Shown here: in pieces, positions 29,832 through 56,068 of the stretch | Numbering within the stretch: the first letter of the stretch is position 1 | Layout of the letters: the number at the start of each line of letters is the position of its first letter | Assembly: GCA_965218095.1 (NCBI GenBank) | Contig: OZ244587.1 | Location: 2,048,001 to 2,112,000, forward strand | DNA: 64,000 nucleotides | Source of the DNA: Candidatus Poribacteria bacterium | GTDB taxonomy: Bacteria > Poribacteria > WGA-4E > PCPOR2b | Reading direction: 5' to 3' | The notes under the pieces: generated by a model | Database searches by the model: none | What the model saw: only the letters and a program-made list of their open reading frames with translations | What the model was told of the DNA's origin: nothing | Made by a program: the position numbers and the translations under genes

Positions 29832-30667
29832 GGTTCTGTTGACATTTCAAGGGAGCCATATAAGAAGGGGGCCATATAAGAGTGGAGACAAAGCTGAGAA
29901 ATCCAAAATAACGGATAGCTAACTTCTCGAACCGAGAGAAGATGCGGCGATACCATTTTATCTTGTTAATGAAACATTCAACCCGATGTCTCTCTTTGTA
30001 CAGATGTTTGTCGTAATCTCTTTGATCCACACGATGACTTTTGGGCGGTATCACCGCAATCGCTCCATTCGCCTCAATAACCGCGATAAAATTGTCGGAG
30101 TCATATCCCTTGTCTCCAATCACATACTCGCTTTTATATCCAAGTATCAACCCTTCTGCTTCCGCTATGTCGTTTCTTTGACCGGGCGTCAGATGTATTC
30201 TTAGGGGATTACCCAGGCCGTCAACTGTGATGTGAATTTTTGTACTGAATCCCCCGCGAGAGCAGCCTAACGCTTGGTTTTCAGTGCCACCCTTTTTTTT
30301 TCGGCACCCGCCGCACACGGGTGCGCGCGAATGATTGTACTGTCCACAATAAGCGACTCGATATCGGGGTCAGAGGCGAAGTGGTGGTGCATCTGTGTGA
30401 AGATACCTTTGTCGCACCACCGAGCAAAACGCTTATAGAGGGTGTTCGATTTACCATAGGTGTCTGGCAGAAGTCCCCATTGAGCACCGCTACGGGTCGC
30501 CCAGAGAATAGCTTCGATAAAGCGGCGTGTTGTCGCTTCGTTGCCAACATAGATGTTGGGACAAGTTAGAAGAAACGAGTATATCTTATTCCATTGGTCA
30601 TCGGGTAAGGTTATTGGCATCATTCTTCTATTATGCCACAACCTTATACTCAAATGTCAACAGAACC
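29832..30667 (-). mobile_element. IS5-family (IS427-group-like) insertion sequence, copy 2; carries the exact protospacer of CRISPR spacer 1
   Basis: Same 16-bp TIRs and TA flanks as copy 1; orfA/orfB overlap at an A9 slippery run (30293-30301); one 16-nt duplication near the 3' end. Confidence 0.95.
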
Positions 30668-30874
30668 TAATTTGCAATGGATTTGGTAAGGTAGCGTATG
30701 TCTTCCGACTTGCGCCGTTGCGGATCACAAGTCAGGAAACTCCAATTGCATCGTGGGCAGGCTATGTGCTACGAATATTACTGGTTGGAACGCAAATTGG
30801 TATTAGGCCTTACAATCTACGCAATACGTGCCACACATCTCACACTATAGATCAAAATGGAAAAGGAGATTTTC

Positions 30875-51076: not shown

Positions 51077-52225
51077 TTGGCTAGAAACTTTGTATTCACA
51101 TCTGAATCCGTAACTGAAGGACACCCCGATAAACTTGCAGATCAGATCTCTGATGCTGTGCTTGATGCTATCATGGCGGAAGATCCAATGGGTCGCGTCG
51201 CTTGCGAAACGTTAGTGACAACGGGGCTTGCACTCATCACAGGTGAAGTCACGACCCACGCAAATTTCATCGATATTCCCGGGCTTGTACGTAACACTAT
51301 CCGACAGGTTGGCTACACCGATGCCTCCTATGGGTTTGACTATGAGCATTGCGCTCTGCTAACTGCAATCGATGAGCAATCCCCGGATATTGCGATGGGT
51401 GTTGATCGGCTTGGCGCCGGTGATCAAGGTATGATGTTCGGCTATGCCTGCCGCGAAACGCCGGAGCTGATGCCGATGCCGATTATGTTGGCGCATAAAC
51501 TGACGCACCGTCTCGCCCAATTGCGGAAAGAAGGGGTATTAGACTTCCTTCGCCCTGATGGCAAATCGCAGGTCACGGTTGAGTACGTCGATGGACAACC
51601 TGAGAATGTCACGACCGTTGTTATCTCGACCCAACACGACCCAGACGTTACCAATGAAGAACTGAGAGAAGCTGTGATCGAGGAGATTATCAAATTCGTG
51701 ATCCCTGATGAGTTGCGCCACCCGGATATCATATACCATGTCAACCCGACAGGACGATTTGTTGTTGGTGGGCCACAAGGAGACGCGGGTTTAACTGGCA
51801 GAAAGATCATCGCTGATACTTACGGTGGCATGGGCAGACACGGTGGCGGTGCATTCTCTGGCAAAGATCCGACGAAAGTGGATCGGAGCGCGGCGTATGC
51901 AGCAAGGCACGTTGCGAAAAACATCGTTGCTGCTGGTTTGGCGGATCGATGTGAAGTCCAACTCTCTTATGCCATCGGTCTCGCTAAACCGATCTCAATC
52001 ATGCTGGAGACTTTCGGTACAGGTGTGATCCTTGATGAAAAACTGGCGCAGCTTGTGGACAAGCTTTTCGATCTGGAACCAGCTAGGATTATCGAACGCC
52101 TTGAGCTCCGGAAGCCGATTTACTCAGCAACAGCGGCTTATGGGCATTTCGGACGTGAGGAGCCGGGTTTCACATGGGAATTGACAGATTATGCAGACTT
52201 GCTGAAATCAGAAGTCGGTGTGTAG
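51077..52225 (+). CDS. metK: S-adenosylmethionine synthetase
   Basis: [34 protein letters not shown]. Confidence 0.98.
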
Positions 52226-52253
52226 CACGATACGCGCTAACAAAGGAGAATTG

Positions 52254-53516
52254 ATGAACCACGACATTAAAAACCGAGAGCTCGCAGAAGATGGAAAGCG
52301 GCGAATTGATTGGGCGGATCGCTTTATGCCTGTCCTCCGTCTGATTCGCCAGCGGTTTGAGCAGGAACGTCCACTCAATGGCGTGCGGCTGTCCGCGTGT
52401 TTGCATGTCACGACAGAAACGGCGAACCTGGTGCGTGCCTTGAAGGCAGGCGGTGCAGAAGTTGTTTTGTGTGCTTCCAATCCGTTGAGCACCCAGGACG
52501 ACGTTGCGGCGTCTCTTGTCATGCATGAGGGAATCCCCATTTTCGCAATCAAGGGCGAGGACACTGAAACCTACTACCAACATCTCGATGAAGCGGTCAA
52601 TTTTCAACCGATGATGACGATGGATGATGGGGCGGATCTGGTCTCTCGGCTCCACTCTGAAGAGGCGAACCCTGCCTTTGTCGAAAACGTGCTTGCAGGT
52701 ACGGAGGAGACAACAACGGGGGTTATCCGACTCAAGAGTATGGCAGCCGAAGGGGTGCTTCGGTATCCAATCATTGCCGTAAACGACGCCAAGACCAAGC
52801 ACTTCTTTGATAATCGCTACGGTACGGGTCAAAGTACGCTAGACGGTATCATTCGCGCGACCAATTTGTTGATCGCCGGGACGACTATCGCCGTCGCGGG
52901 CTACGGGTGGTGTGGACGCGGTTTTGCCAGTCGGGCGCGGGGGTTGGGGGCGAATGTCATTGTCACGGAAGTCGATCCGTTGAGCGCGTTGGAAGCAGTG
53001 ATGGACGGCTTCCGCGTCTTGCCGATGATTAAAGCTGTCGCCGAAGCCGATCTCGTCGTTACGCTGACGGGCGATATTCATGTGTTGCGCCGCGAGCACT
53101 TTGAAGCGATGAAGGATGGCGCGATTATTTGTAATTCGGGGCATTTCAATGTCGAAATTAACATCCCCGATCTCAAAGATTTAAGCACCGAGGTGAGAAC
53201 CACGCGAGAGTTTGTCGAGGAATATTCCCTCAAGGATGGGCGCAAGCTCTACCTGCTCGGCGAAGGAAGGCTGATAAATCTCGTTTCGGCGGAGGGGCAC
53301 CCCGCTAGTGTCATGGATATGAGTTTCGCTAATCAGGCGCTGTCTGCGGAGTACGTTGTTAAAAACCATCAACAGATGGAAAATCGTGTTTATGACGTGC
53401 CGGAAGAACTGGATGCCTCTATTGCAAAACTCAAATTGCAATCCATCGGCGTTGAAATTGATGAACTGACGGAAGAACAGCGGACTTATCTCAGTTCTTG
53501 GACGATGGGAACATAG
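52254..53516 (+). CDS. ahcY: Adenosylhomocysteinase
   Basis: [39 protein letters not shown]. Confidence 0.98.
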
Positions 53517-53537
53517 CGTAAAACGTAAGATGCCACC

Positions 53538-53726
53538 GTTTCAATCTTATAAGGGTTTGGTTCGGCGTTGCAACTTACCCAGGCCGTCAACTGTGATGTG
53601 AATTTTTGTACTGGTTTCAATCTTATAAGGGTTTGGTTCGGCGTTGCAACCCCGGCAGTTCTAATGACCGTGCGAACAAACTTGTTACCGTTTCAATCTT
53701 ATAAGGGTTTGGTTCGGCGTTGCAAC
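53538..53726 (+). CRISPR. CRISPR mini-array: 3 identical 37-bp repeats and 2 spacers of 39 bp
   Basis: Repeat GTTTCAATCTTATAAGGGTTTGGTTCGGCGTTGCAAC at 53538-53574, 53614-53650, 53690-53726; spacers at 53575-53613 and 53651-53689; strand inferred from the downstream anti-repeat, omegaRNA and iscB. Confidence 0.95.
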
Positions 53727-53833
53727 CCCGGCGCCTCTGGGAGCCTTGACGTTGTTGGGGTTTTCAACTCTTTTTCTGTCAGCCCCTCCCCAATCGGGGA
53801 GGAGGACACGGTTTGGGGGGATAAGGTAAGTCG

Positions 53834-54217
53834 GTGACAACGCCGAAACCCTTATAGGTGTTGCAAAGCCGGGCTTTCCTGTCAGTCTGCGGGGTTTTTA
53901 TTAGCCCTAGGGTTGGCAGGATTAAATCCTTATAAGGTATCCCTTTAAGTGGTAGATTCTAATTACACTCACACCTAGAAACAGCCTTAGCCCGTGAGTT
54001 GAAAGGAATCTGGGCTACGTTGGTATGATTAGCATACCCTGGGGTGCTCCACCAGCCCCAGGCACTATGGCGGCTCTTTAAGAAGGACTTGGGGAGGTTC
54101 GGTCAACCGCATTTCGCACTCACTTTGAGTGAAAGTCACACCAACATTGGCGGGGTGGATCATACCTATTACCCCCCTATCTCCCTCCCGCAAGCGGGGA
54201 GGGGGAAGGGAGGTAAT
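53834..54217 (+). ncRNA. tracrRNA-like anti-repeat joined to an omegaRNA/HEARO-like scaffold (boundaries approximate)
   Basis: CAACGCCG-AAACCCTTATA (53838-53856) is complementary to the repeat with a 4-nt bulge; HEARO-like CTACGTT, stem CCTGGGGTGCTCCACCAGCCCCAGG (54038-54062), AACATTGGCG; pseudoknot pair TCCACC 54048-54053/GGTGGA 54154-54159; terminal hairpin 54168-54217. Confidence 0.85.
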
Positions 54218-54227
54218 GGAGGTCAAT

Positions 54228-55769
54228 ATGTTTGTTCATGTTTTATCAAAATCAGGTCAGCCGTTGATGCCCACGCATCCGGCAAACGCACGTAAACTGC
54301 TTAGAGACGAAAAAGCCCAAGTTGCGAAAACTAAAACGGGCGTGTTTACGATTCAACTCAATTATGAATCTCTAACATATACGCAACCGATAACCGTTGG
54401 AATTGACACCGGCTCAAAATCTGTGCCGATCGCCGCAGAGGGCAACGGCAAAATTTACTACGCCAAGGAGAAACTATTACGGACGGATGTTAAGAATCGA
54501 CTTTCCGATCGGCGTCAACAGAGGAGAATCCGAAGACACCGTAAAACCCGGTATCGGAAACCTCGTTTTTTGAACCGCACCAAAACGAAATGCAGCCGTT
54601 GCGGTGTCAATAATGTGCCGTGTTTATGGACTCTCAAAAAGCGCGAAGAGGGGCAGACAAAGAAGTGGGTTAAGGGTCGGAGAAAATCTTTATGCAGACC
54701 TTGTAAAGGGCATAAAGGAGAGCATAAGCAACCGACTGTGTTAGCCCCTTCAATTAAGAACCGTGCGGAGAGTATTCTAAATGATGTAGAGAGACTGCGG
54801 AAAACCCTGCCCATCTCTAAGGTGGTCGTAGAAACGGCGTCATTCGATACTCAGAAGATGGCAGATCCGAAAATTAAAGGCGTCGAATACCAGCAGGGAA
54901 CCCTCGCCGGGTACGAGTTGAAAGAGTATCTGCTGATAGTGAACAAGCATACATGCGCCTATTGTGGTAAAAAGGATGTCCCCCTTGAAAGGGAACATAT
55001 TTTGCCCAAAGCCAAGGGAGGCAGCGATCGCATTGATAACGCGACGGTCGCTTGTGTGTCTTGCAATGCCGAAAAAGGCGCGAGGACATTAGATCAGTGG
55101 GAAGAGTCACTGCCAGAGGCGGACGCTCGTAGGCAGGGGATACAGCGGGTTCGGAAAAATGCGAATGTCAAAAAAGAATTCCAGTATTCGGCATTGACCC
55201 AATCCTATAAGAATTATTTGATGAAGTCATTGCGCGAACAGTTCCCTGTAATTGAGGAGACTTACGGTTACATGACGAAGTTCTACCGGATTCGACGGAA
55301 GCTTGACAAAACCCAGATAAACGATGCTATGGTGATTGCATCAGAAGGGGAGCCGTTCCAACTACCGGATCGATTTCTTATAGAGAAGCAGATCAAGAAA
55401 CGGCATCCATATCATTCTATCTCGGACCGACATGGTTATAAAATCGTCAAGTATAAGCGCGATCCTGAAAAATATGGTTTCCGCCTATGGGATCGAGTGA
55501 GTTTCAATCATAAGGAATTCGGAGAAGTGGTTGCTTATATCTCTGCGCTGAAAGAGGATGGCTATTTTGAAATGCGCGATATTGAAGGAGGGAAAATTAA
55601 GGGAAAGCGTCCGACCTGTTCACATAAAAAGTTAAAATTGATAGAACCCGCGAGAACAAACTACATAAGGGAATGGCGCGTAACGCGGACTTCGACGAGC
55701 TCAGACTTCGTCGATCCATTGTTAGCCGGTCCTGCCGAACAACTTCACCTGTTCTCGCTTATGTCATAG
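54228..55769 (+). CDS. iscB: CRISPR-associated IscB RNA-guided endonuclease (513 aa)
   Basis: GQPLMPT (PLMP), RuvC-I GIDTG (D60), Arg-rich bridge helix RRQQRRIRRHRKTRYRKPRFLNR, RuvC-II VVETASFD (E202), HNH CAYC..EHILPKAKGGSD..N..ACVSCN, RuvC-III KTQINDA; GGAGGT RBS before ATG 54228. Confidence 0.95.
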   Translation: MFVHVLSKSGQPLMPTHPANARKLLRDEKAQVAKTKTGVFTIQLNYESLTYTQPITVGIDTGSKSVPIAAEGNGKIYYAKEKLLRTDVKNRLSDRRQQRRIRRHRKTRYRKPRFLNRTKTKCSRCGVNNVPCLWTLKKREEGQTKKWVKGRRKSLCRPCKGHKGEHKQPTVLAPSIKNRAESILNDVERLRKTLPISKVVVETASFDTQKMADPKIKGVEYQQGTLAGYELKEYLLIVNKHTCAYCGKKDVPLEREHILPKAKGGSDRIDNATVACVSCNAEKGARTLDQWEESLPEADARRQGIQRVRKNANVKKEFQYSALTQSYKNYLMKSLREQFPVIEETYGYMTKFYRIRRKLDKTQINDAMVIASEGEPFQLPDRFLIEKQIKKRHPYHSISDRHGYKIVKYKRDPEKYGFRLWDRVSFNHKEFGEVVAYISALKEDGYFEMRDIEGGKIKGKRPTCSHKKLKLIEPARTNYIREWRVTRTSTSSDFVDPLLAGPAEQLHLFSLMS

Positions 55770-55831
55770 AGGTATTGCTGGGAAATATTCACATTAAAAC
55801 TATCGGCTCTTAGAGTAAAGGGGCCTGACTT

Positions 55832-56068
55832 ATGAAAAAATCAGATCTCTGGGAAAATATCATTTTGCTTCTGTCGGCGATTTTACTTGTGCCGATCTGG
55901 ATGTTCAAATCCAATCTATCACAGTTATCCGGCGGCATGTTCCAACTGTACCAGATACTACAAGTCGTTTTAGTGATTGTTCTCGTCGTTATGCTGGTTC
56001 GTCGTGTTCGGCGCGTTATGGCTGCGTTGCGCGGGAACAAAAACCGTCAGGGGCCCTTTCTGTTCTAA
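55832..56068 (+). CDS. Small two-TM membrane protein
   Basis: Two hydrophobic helices and a basic tail; co-oriented with its neighbours. Confidence 0.7.
   Translation: MKKSDLWENIILLLSAILLVPIWMFKSNLSQLSGGMFQLYQILQVVLVIVLVVMLVRRVRRVMAALRGNKNRQGPFLF

Follow-up and report, generated by a model that had tools for sequence, protein, structure and literature searches.

The locus described here raises the question of how an IscB nuclease obtains its guide when a small CRISPR array lies directly upstream of its gene. It was found in a 64,000-nt stretch (called the window below) of the chromosome of a Candidatus Poribacteria bacterium (contig OZ244587.1, positions 2,048,001 to 2,112,000), and positions without further label refer to this window. 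We think it likely that the locus is a horizontally acquired, single-copy CRISPR-associated IscB module, in which an array-derived RNA pairs with an anti-repeat joined to an omegaRNA-type scaffold.

The cassette and its surroundings

The whole cassette, made up of array, scaffold RNA and iscB, occupies 53513–55831 on the plus strand, between ahcY and a small ORF in the gene row metK-ahcY-...-pfkB (neighbours assigned by Pfam, pfkB being a kinase gene). Its borders come from contigs of runs X2 and X9, in which position 53512 is joined to 55832, so that 2319 nt are missing and 21 other letters stand there instead. As the flanks of these contigs are about 92% like the window, array, scaffold and iscB are absent as one 2319-nt unit in a ~92%-similar population. 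In run X2, contig depth is higher for the empty site than for the filled one. The 6.35-Mb genome contains one iscB and one HEARO element, and its four Y1-transposase matches are all located away from the cassette. Mobile IscBs of the IS200/IS605 type are recognized by occurring in several copies, together with a TnpA and with a guide drawn from the DNA at their flank, and these features were not found for this locus. Among 60 relatives searched there is no orthologue of the cassette, the best IscB match there being 41% identical. Just 3' of the ahcY stop, CGTAAAACGTAAG (53516–53528) is one of a family of runs of ACGTRAW heptamers that are spread over the genome and often stand between genes as inverted pairs; the exact 13-mer is present 22 times, and partial forms are numerous. 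Runs of this kind are also seen upstream in two related loci, L009 and L001.

The iscB gene is an intact ORF of 513 aa (54228–55769, plus strand) preceded by GGAGG, and its product matches NCBIfam guided_IscB and Pfam RRXRR plus HNH. The score is 300.9 bits against the NCBIfam IscB equivalog NF040563 (cut-off 175) and 175.4 bits against PF14239 (RRXRR), in addition to matches with HNH families. The protein has the PLMP/RRXRR N-terminus, split RuvC and HNH of the IscB family, and D60, E202, H257, N280 and D366 fall in columns that are invariant across 36 aligned relatives. Its best match among solved structures is TbaIscB (E 6e-49, 170 bits), with 103 bits for OgeuIscB. Residues 122–159 of this protein (P0001) form a Cys-rich insert (CxxC ... 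CxxC) past the bridge helix, whose four Cys are invariant or nearly so in the 36 relatives. By the PDB alignment TbaIscB has part of this insert, which probably forms a zinc ribbon at the place of the REC linker.

Directly adjacent to iscB and in the same orientation is a mini CRISPR array (53538–53726, plus strand) of three identical 37-nt repeats (53538–53574, 53614–53650 and 53690–53726), which is the minimum array size. The period of 76 nt leaves two 39-nt spacers, spacer 1 at 53575–53613 and spacer 2 at 53651–53689, both read on the plus strand. No other copies of the repeat were found in the genome with up to 8 substitutions allowed. Two palindromes, CTTATAAG and GTTGCAAC, are contained in the repeat, and several pairing registers are therefore possible. 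CCCGGC opens both spacer 2 (53651–53656) and the sequence past the last repeat (53727–53732), from which the older repeat unit may have been 43 nt long, and a 37-nt ruler may have set the later addition of spacer 1. After the array come a terminator-like hairpin with a T-run (53738–53775, plus strand; 13 pairs, then ACTCTTTTTC) and the GC-rich hairpin CCTCCCC-AATC-GGGGAGG (53785–53802, plus strand), which separates array and anti-repeat as the first-pass annotation of this DNA had described. We asked whether a REP element spread over the genome accounts for the two GC-rich hairpins and rejected this, with four such hairpins in 6.35 Mb; the post-array segment has no second match in the own genome.

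Spacer 2 has no match in viral contigs (its 3' 23 nt searched), phages, plasmids or the own genome. Spacer 1 is identical in all its letters to a stretch inside the transposase gene of an IS4/5-family element, the most abundant mobile element of the host, and this copying of the host's own IS is particular to the window locus. Besides the array, it has 18 perfect sites in the genome (39/39) and 49 with at most 2 mismatches; its last 16 nt, taken as the guide length, occur at 70 chromosomal sites, of which 39 have AATCCCCC and 27 have AAACCGCC as flank, and the flanks of spacer 1 and of the IS copies diverge exactly at the spacer borders. The targeted IS, an element of 835 bp, has 124 genomic copies longer than 700 nt. 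One copy is located in the window (29835–30670, minus strand), with the protospacer at 30209–30247 on the plus strand. DUF4096 and DDE_Tnp_1 are encoded by two frames of the element that overlap; the target falls within the DDE region, and the sense strand of spacer 1 is antisense to the transposase gene. Escape mutations of the IS in the protospacer, the seed or on the TAM side were looked for and rejected as an explanation of its variation, which falls on every third base as elsewhere in the IS, with a diversity of 0.055 in the protospacer vs 0.059 overall. A self-matching spacer tolerated at 70 sites in a living cell, together with an IS that shows no escape pattern, fits a system that is not cutting these sites.

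The anti-repeat and the scaffold RNA

It had been proposed from the letters that 53838–53856 pairs with the repeat in 8 bp plus 11 bp around a 4-nt bulge, and the reverse complement of the repeat does align there with 8 + 11 matches around a 4-nt gap. The contiguous anti-repeat, named A, spans 53834–53870 (plus strand) and pairs with repeat nt 1–36, leaving a 4-nt bulge in the repeat. With RNAduplex the pair forms 31 bp at -35.1 kcal/mol, a value reached by none of 1000 mononucleotide shuffles of the anti-repeat target. Among 15,922 segments of 48 nt on both strands of the 64 kb, array antisense excluded, A gives the best duplex by a narrow margin (next segments -34.0 and -33.8 kcal/mol; mean -16.6, sd 3.6). 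Genome-wide blastn with the repeat returns 27 matches of equal or better score, and from the 16 of them that are antisense about 4e-4 would be expected in the 170 nt between array and scaffold. An anti-repeat complementary to the cognate repeat is thus located between array and scaffold, which is one of the marks of a CRISPR-associated IscB.

A split anti-repeat, B (53860–53981, plus strand), is predicted as an alternative, with the hairpin 53878–53920 looped out. In this register 53860–53876 would pair with repeat nt 22–37, 53922–53937 with nt 7–21, and GAAAC at 53977–53981 with nt 1–5. AAATCCTTATAAG at 53924–53936 agrees with the reverse complement of the repeat in 12 of 13 positions, and GTTGCAAAGCCG at 53860–53871 in 11 of 12. 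RNA cofolding, a check suggested by the first-pass annotation, gives a minimum-energy structure that uses split B at -73.4 kcal/mol, with contiguous A at -70.8, and the predicted ensemble pairing probabilities are about 0.51–0.54 for B and 0.45–0.49 for A. On these predictions B would be about as stable as A, and folding makes no choice of register. The same annotation had noted about 130 nt between anti-repeat and core that hold a repeat-like element. The element, CCTTATAAGG at 53928–53937, is present and forms part of the second candidate anti-repeat; the stretch around it is not additional sequence, because most of it is covered by positions 1–55 of the HEARO model and so belongs to the ordinary guide-adaptor part.

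The scaffold matches Rfam HEARO (RF02033) at 53897–54165 on the plus strand, over the full model (1–211), with 75.3 bits and E 4.2e-15. This score falls short of the gathering threshold of 83, as do 10 of the 12 HEARO matches in the loci of 14 relatives. The pairings that had been read from the letters downstream of the anti-repeat were found again: AGCCC/GGGCT (53989–53993 with 54012–54016), GTTGGT/ACCAAC (54019–54024 with 54140–54145), the CCTGGGG/CCCCAGG stem (54038–54044 with 54056–54062) and the pseudoknot TCCACC/GGTGGA (54048–54053 with 54154–54159, plus strand). The terminal hairpin (54166–54219, plus strand; fold -39 kcal/mol) abuts the RBS GGAGG (54219–54223), close to the ATG at 54228. 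Covariation was also checked as suggested, in an alignment of the window with 11 related loci (12 sequences), and both the scaffold helices and the pseudoknot covary. In the scaffold alignment 80% of cells are paired (69.2% for shuffles), both partners vary in 21 of 37 pairs, the score is reached by 0 of 500 shuffles, and slid controls fall as low as 34–50% paired, with the tested structure favoured in covariation control (b) by being derived from the window's own sequence. In the pseudoknot, 92.4% of cells are paired, and two of the six pairs vary in both partners.

In order to see which part of this region appears in RNA libraries, contigs from two RNA-library runs of one study and from two other runs were compared over 52200–56000. 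Two RNA-library contigs start at 53836 and 53843, at the anti-repeat, and reach 54155 and 54360, and separate ones cover 53698–53855; DNA-run contigs cross 53836/53843 without a break. Since contigs show no ends, strand or level, come from one study for RNA, and may derive from DNA within RNA libraries, these starts give a weak hint that an RNA begins at the anti-repeat. The RNA-library contigs leave gaps over parts of ahcY and over most of the interior of iscB, and such holes prove nothing. A terminator-like hairpin with a U-run (53877–53903) is contained in the 5' part of the scaffold, and RNA-library contigs run through it. No sigma-70 consensus promoter was found in 53350–54300. As for processing, which the first-pass annotation thought might yield more than one RNA and might depend on RNase III, searches of the own genome for the RNase III catalytic domain gave no match to PF14622 or PF00636, two motif scans were empty, and the sole match to TIGR02191 was a protein of about 195 aa with an N-terminal dsRBD (30.5 bits; L183 1150–1737, minus strand). 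With these queries, 0 of 31 genomes of the order (the own and 30 relatives) had an RNase III over the cut-off.

Pairing in vivo, RNA ends, guide length, TAM and cleavage are what we infer from these parts, as follows. The array would be transcribed on the plus strand, probably with the metK-ahcY operon, to yield a spacer-repeat RNA, and a long scaffold RNA would run from at or near the anti-repeat through the HEARO-type core (nexus stem, pseudoknot and terminal hairpin) to iscB. The repeat would then find the anti-repeat in trans, or fold back on it as a hairpin within a single read-through transcript, and rebuild the guide-adaptor helix that ordinary omegaRNAs make alone. This would place the 3' end of the spacer where IscB expects its guide, and IscB would cut matching DNA beside a TAM via its RuvC and HNH sites.

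Related loci and competing readings

The closest proteins to the window IscB are one at 99% identity and then many at about 50–57%. A single-protein scan of genome contigs with the window IscB found no relative; scans with an alignment query gave 160 related loci. Eight of these were flagged by a k-mer array detector. Two flagged loci, L072 and L074, were rejected as CRISPR arrays, being coding tandem repeats, and in L062, L101 and L112 the flags lie away from the 5' side of iscB and stand outside the array count. In L003, L005 and L012, which are 50–54% identical, arrays of 6, 10–11 and 3 repeats are located directly upstream of iscB; with little upstream DNA in many of the 160 loci, arrays may have been missed.

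When the repeats of the four array-bearing loci were paired with each array-to-ATG region (a 4 x 4 matrix), the own region was the best partner in four of four cases, at -44.5, -29.1, -41.4 and -35.1 kcal/mol, with -17.8 to -33.4 for non-cognate pairs and -15.8 to -29.5 for the repeats against four array-less relatives. In the RNAduplex structures of L003, L005 and L012, the 3' part of the repeat pairs with the anti-repeat, a small hairpin being looped out, and the first HEARO stem offers its 3' strand as partner to the 5' end of the repeat; by this pattern the repeat would take the place of the guide-adaptor region in its 5' half. By sequence, the window repeat is not clearly homologous to the repeats of these three loci. 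A hairpin of the GTCGTCGAC...GATCGACGATC type between array and anti-repeat is kept in all three (L003 440–510, L005 1245–1300, L012 475–530), as is a second copy of GATCGACGA just 5' of the anti-repeat.

Array-less canonical omegaRNAs occur in nine close loci (L001, L002, L004, L007, L009, L011, L013, L014 and L081), where they begin with GTCAAYA right behind host genes. In a quick ML tree of the IscB clade, the canonical members group in a tight clade, and the lineages with arrays branch off below it as a basal grade; a single origin of the arrays would be compatible with this tree, which says no more on the point. Three of the canonical loci, L007, L011 and L013, have broken iscB frames (stops after 40, 319 and 281 codons), and their omegaRNAs look intact. 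In L001, about 380 nt (2118–2500) separate omegaRNA and iscB start and contain a 20-nt tandem repeat of GATTGCTTCGCAAAGCTCGT-like units.

The host has two large CRISPR arrays, at 3424073–3432786 and 4784269–4788893, with 116 and 62 repeats of 37 nt, and a Cas1 gene beside each (at 3.42 and 4.78 Mb); none is present in the 64-kb window. A Y1-transposase-like match directly follows the first cas1 (3422249–3422581). None of the about 175 spacers in these arrays matches elsewhere in the genome. Because the mini-array repeat has the same 37 nt and similar ends, a supply of spacers in trans is conceivable.

We favour the module reading on the protein score, the HEARO match, covariation, the placement of the anti-repeat, the array-bearing relatives, cognate pairing, the repeat-to-scaffold pairing pattern of those relatives, inheritance as a unit and the literature, with the RNA-library contigs as a weak hint. 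What we counted against it are the narrow duplex margin, the multiple registers, the sub-threshold HEARO score, RNA contigs from one study, and the lack of a sigma-70 promoter in the region searched, and further that no RNase III was found, that there are only two spacers, that the self-spacer is tolerated, and that 60 relatives hold no orthologue. Several of these points also speak for a relic, in which IscB is an ordinary omegaRNA enzyme or inactive, the scaffold retains a guide-adaptor region of its own, and the array and the partial repeat in inverse orientation, playing no part in guide loading, remain from a duplication or from a hybrid in decay. The HEARO alignment takes in the whole model, positions 1–55 among them, so the cis 5' region is still present; the array has three repeats only; the self-matching spacer is tolerated while the IS bears no escape signature; and the 60 relatives offer no orthologous locus that could reveal selection. 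The three repeats are nevertheless identical, the anti-repeat has the position and orientation known from L003, L005 and L012, and in all four loci the cognate pairing is the best, the first cis stem of the scaffold is weak and absent from the RNAfold prediction, and the 37 nt just upstream of the scaffold have no second match in the genome for a fixed guide to serve. We regard a relic as unlikely.

Another reading makes the mini-array an orphan of the host's class 1 CRISPR, processed and read by its Cas6 and effectors, maybe from the other strand, with iscB a mere neighbour. Its repeat has the length of those in both host arrays, its first 12 nt agree in 10 of 12 positions both with array A of the host and with array B read as reverse complement, and its own reverse complement ends in ATTGAAAC, as array B does; the Cas1 genes adjoin both host arrays, and 39-nt spacers are within their length ranges. 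Set against this, array and iscB are present or absent as one 2.3-kb unit, a significant anti-repeat lies on the iscB strand, close IscB relatives have arrays of their own, and the repeat occurs in no other array of the genome, which makes such an orphan less probable still than a relic. The host-array and IscB readings are compatible, as host Cas1-Cas2 could feed an array that IscB reads. The least probable account, and to us a very improbable one, is chance complementarity, by which a palindrome-rich repeat finds a partner in a GC-balanced leader: other segments do reach -34.0 and -33.8 kcal/mol and 27 genome-wide matches align as well or better, yet only about 4e-4 are expected in the relevant 170 nt and orientation, and three relatives show this arrangement again in other sequences.

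An extended form of the module reading, in which host Cas1-Cas2 extends the array, the IS-derived spacer brakes the 124-copy IS, and maturation proceeds free of RNase III via a bistable double anti-repeat, seems to us about as doubtful as the relic. If such a brake were true, it might act via IscB, or via the crRNA as antisense to transposase mRNA.

Comparison with known systems

CRISPR-associated IscBs were published in 2021 (Altae-Tran et al.) and engineered in 2025, with few loci known, and guide- and TAM-dependent DNA cleavage was demonstrated for K. racemifer IscB-1 and DelIscB, according to the parts of the papers available to us (PMC11610941, PMC10734277, PMC12660989). The available text of one of them gives the processing of their RNA into crRNA and tracrRNA as still open in 2025 (PMC12660989), and the accessible part of another source treats the guide-adaptor hairpin of IscB as equivalent to the repeat:anti-repeat duplex of Cas9 (PMC9640706). 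The first-pass annotation had called the locus a snapshot of tracrRNA origin. What holds is that an anti-repeat is joined to an omegaRNA scaffold upstream of iscB; a place on the Cas9 lineage does not follow from it. In the available parts of these papers CRISPR-associated IscBs are said to have several independent origins, separate from Cas9 (PMC10734277, PMC11610941, PMC12660989). It is reasonable to say that the locus illustrates a route to tracrRNA, an evolutionary reading that is not new and not provable from one locus.

CRISPR-associated IscBs are the clearest living models of the step from the fixed guide RNA of a transposon to the exchangeable crRNA:tracrRNA of Cas9. The present locus is part of a closed bacterial genome, and its IscB clade shows both the canonical omegaRNA and the state with a repeat-replaced guide-adaptor. 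With Cas1-bearing host arrays that could supply spacers, a host in which RNase III was not detected, and one spacer aimed at the own IS, it opens to experiment the questions of where the spacers of such an array come from, what cuts the RNA and against which targets these systems are directed.

With canonical OMEGA IscB (OgeuIscB, PDB 7XHT/7UTN; HEARO), the locus shares the nexus stem, central stem, pseudoknot and terminal hairpin, an RNA directly 5' of the gene, and the protein family. In canonical OMEGA, however, the guide is directly 5' of a cis guide-adaptor hairpin and there is no array, whereas in the window a separate RNA segment that carries a repeat must supply the guide. TbaIscB has the Cys-rich insert past the bridge helix in common with the window IscB (printed alignment); it is described with an omegaRNA, and the accessible part of its description mentions no array. 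Like type II Cas9, the locus combines a spacer-repeat RNA with a 5' anti-repeat of a scaffold RNA. It differs from type II in that its IscB has no REC lobe (TIGR01865, 18.8 bits vs a cut-off of 100; Cas9d model, 61.2 bits vs 375), no cas1/cas2 is located at the locus, no RNase III was found in the host, and the scaffold is about 330 nt long vs about 75 nt in type II Cas9.

The closest likeness in layout is with K. racemifer IscB-1 and DelIscB, as far as the accessible descriptions go: a small IscB without cas genes at the locus, upstream non-coding repeats and spacers, an anti-repeat and an omegaRNA-like scaffold. As this layout is already published, the locus adds a member to the CRISPR-associated IscBs and is not a separate system. 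The published loci were compared by the accessible parts of their descriptions, not by sequence, and on that basis the window locus differs in the length of its IscB (513 aa, vs 457 aa in DelIscB), in a 37-nt repeat with class-1-like ends, in two alternative anti-repeat registers, and in keeping the HEARO 5' region between anti-repeat and core. It is further set apart from these descriptions as a chromosomal, single-copy locus in a genome with two Cas1-bearing arrays, and by its IS-copying spacer.
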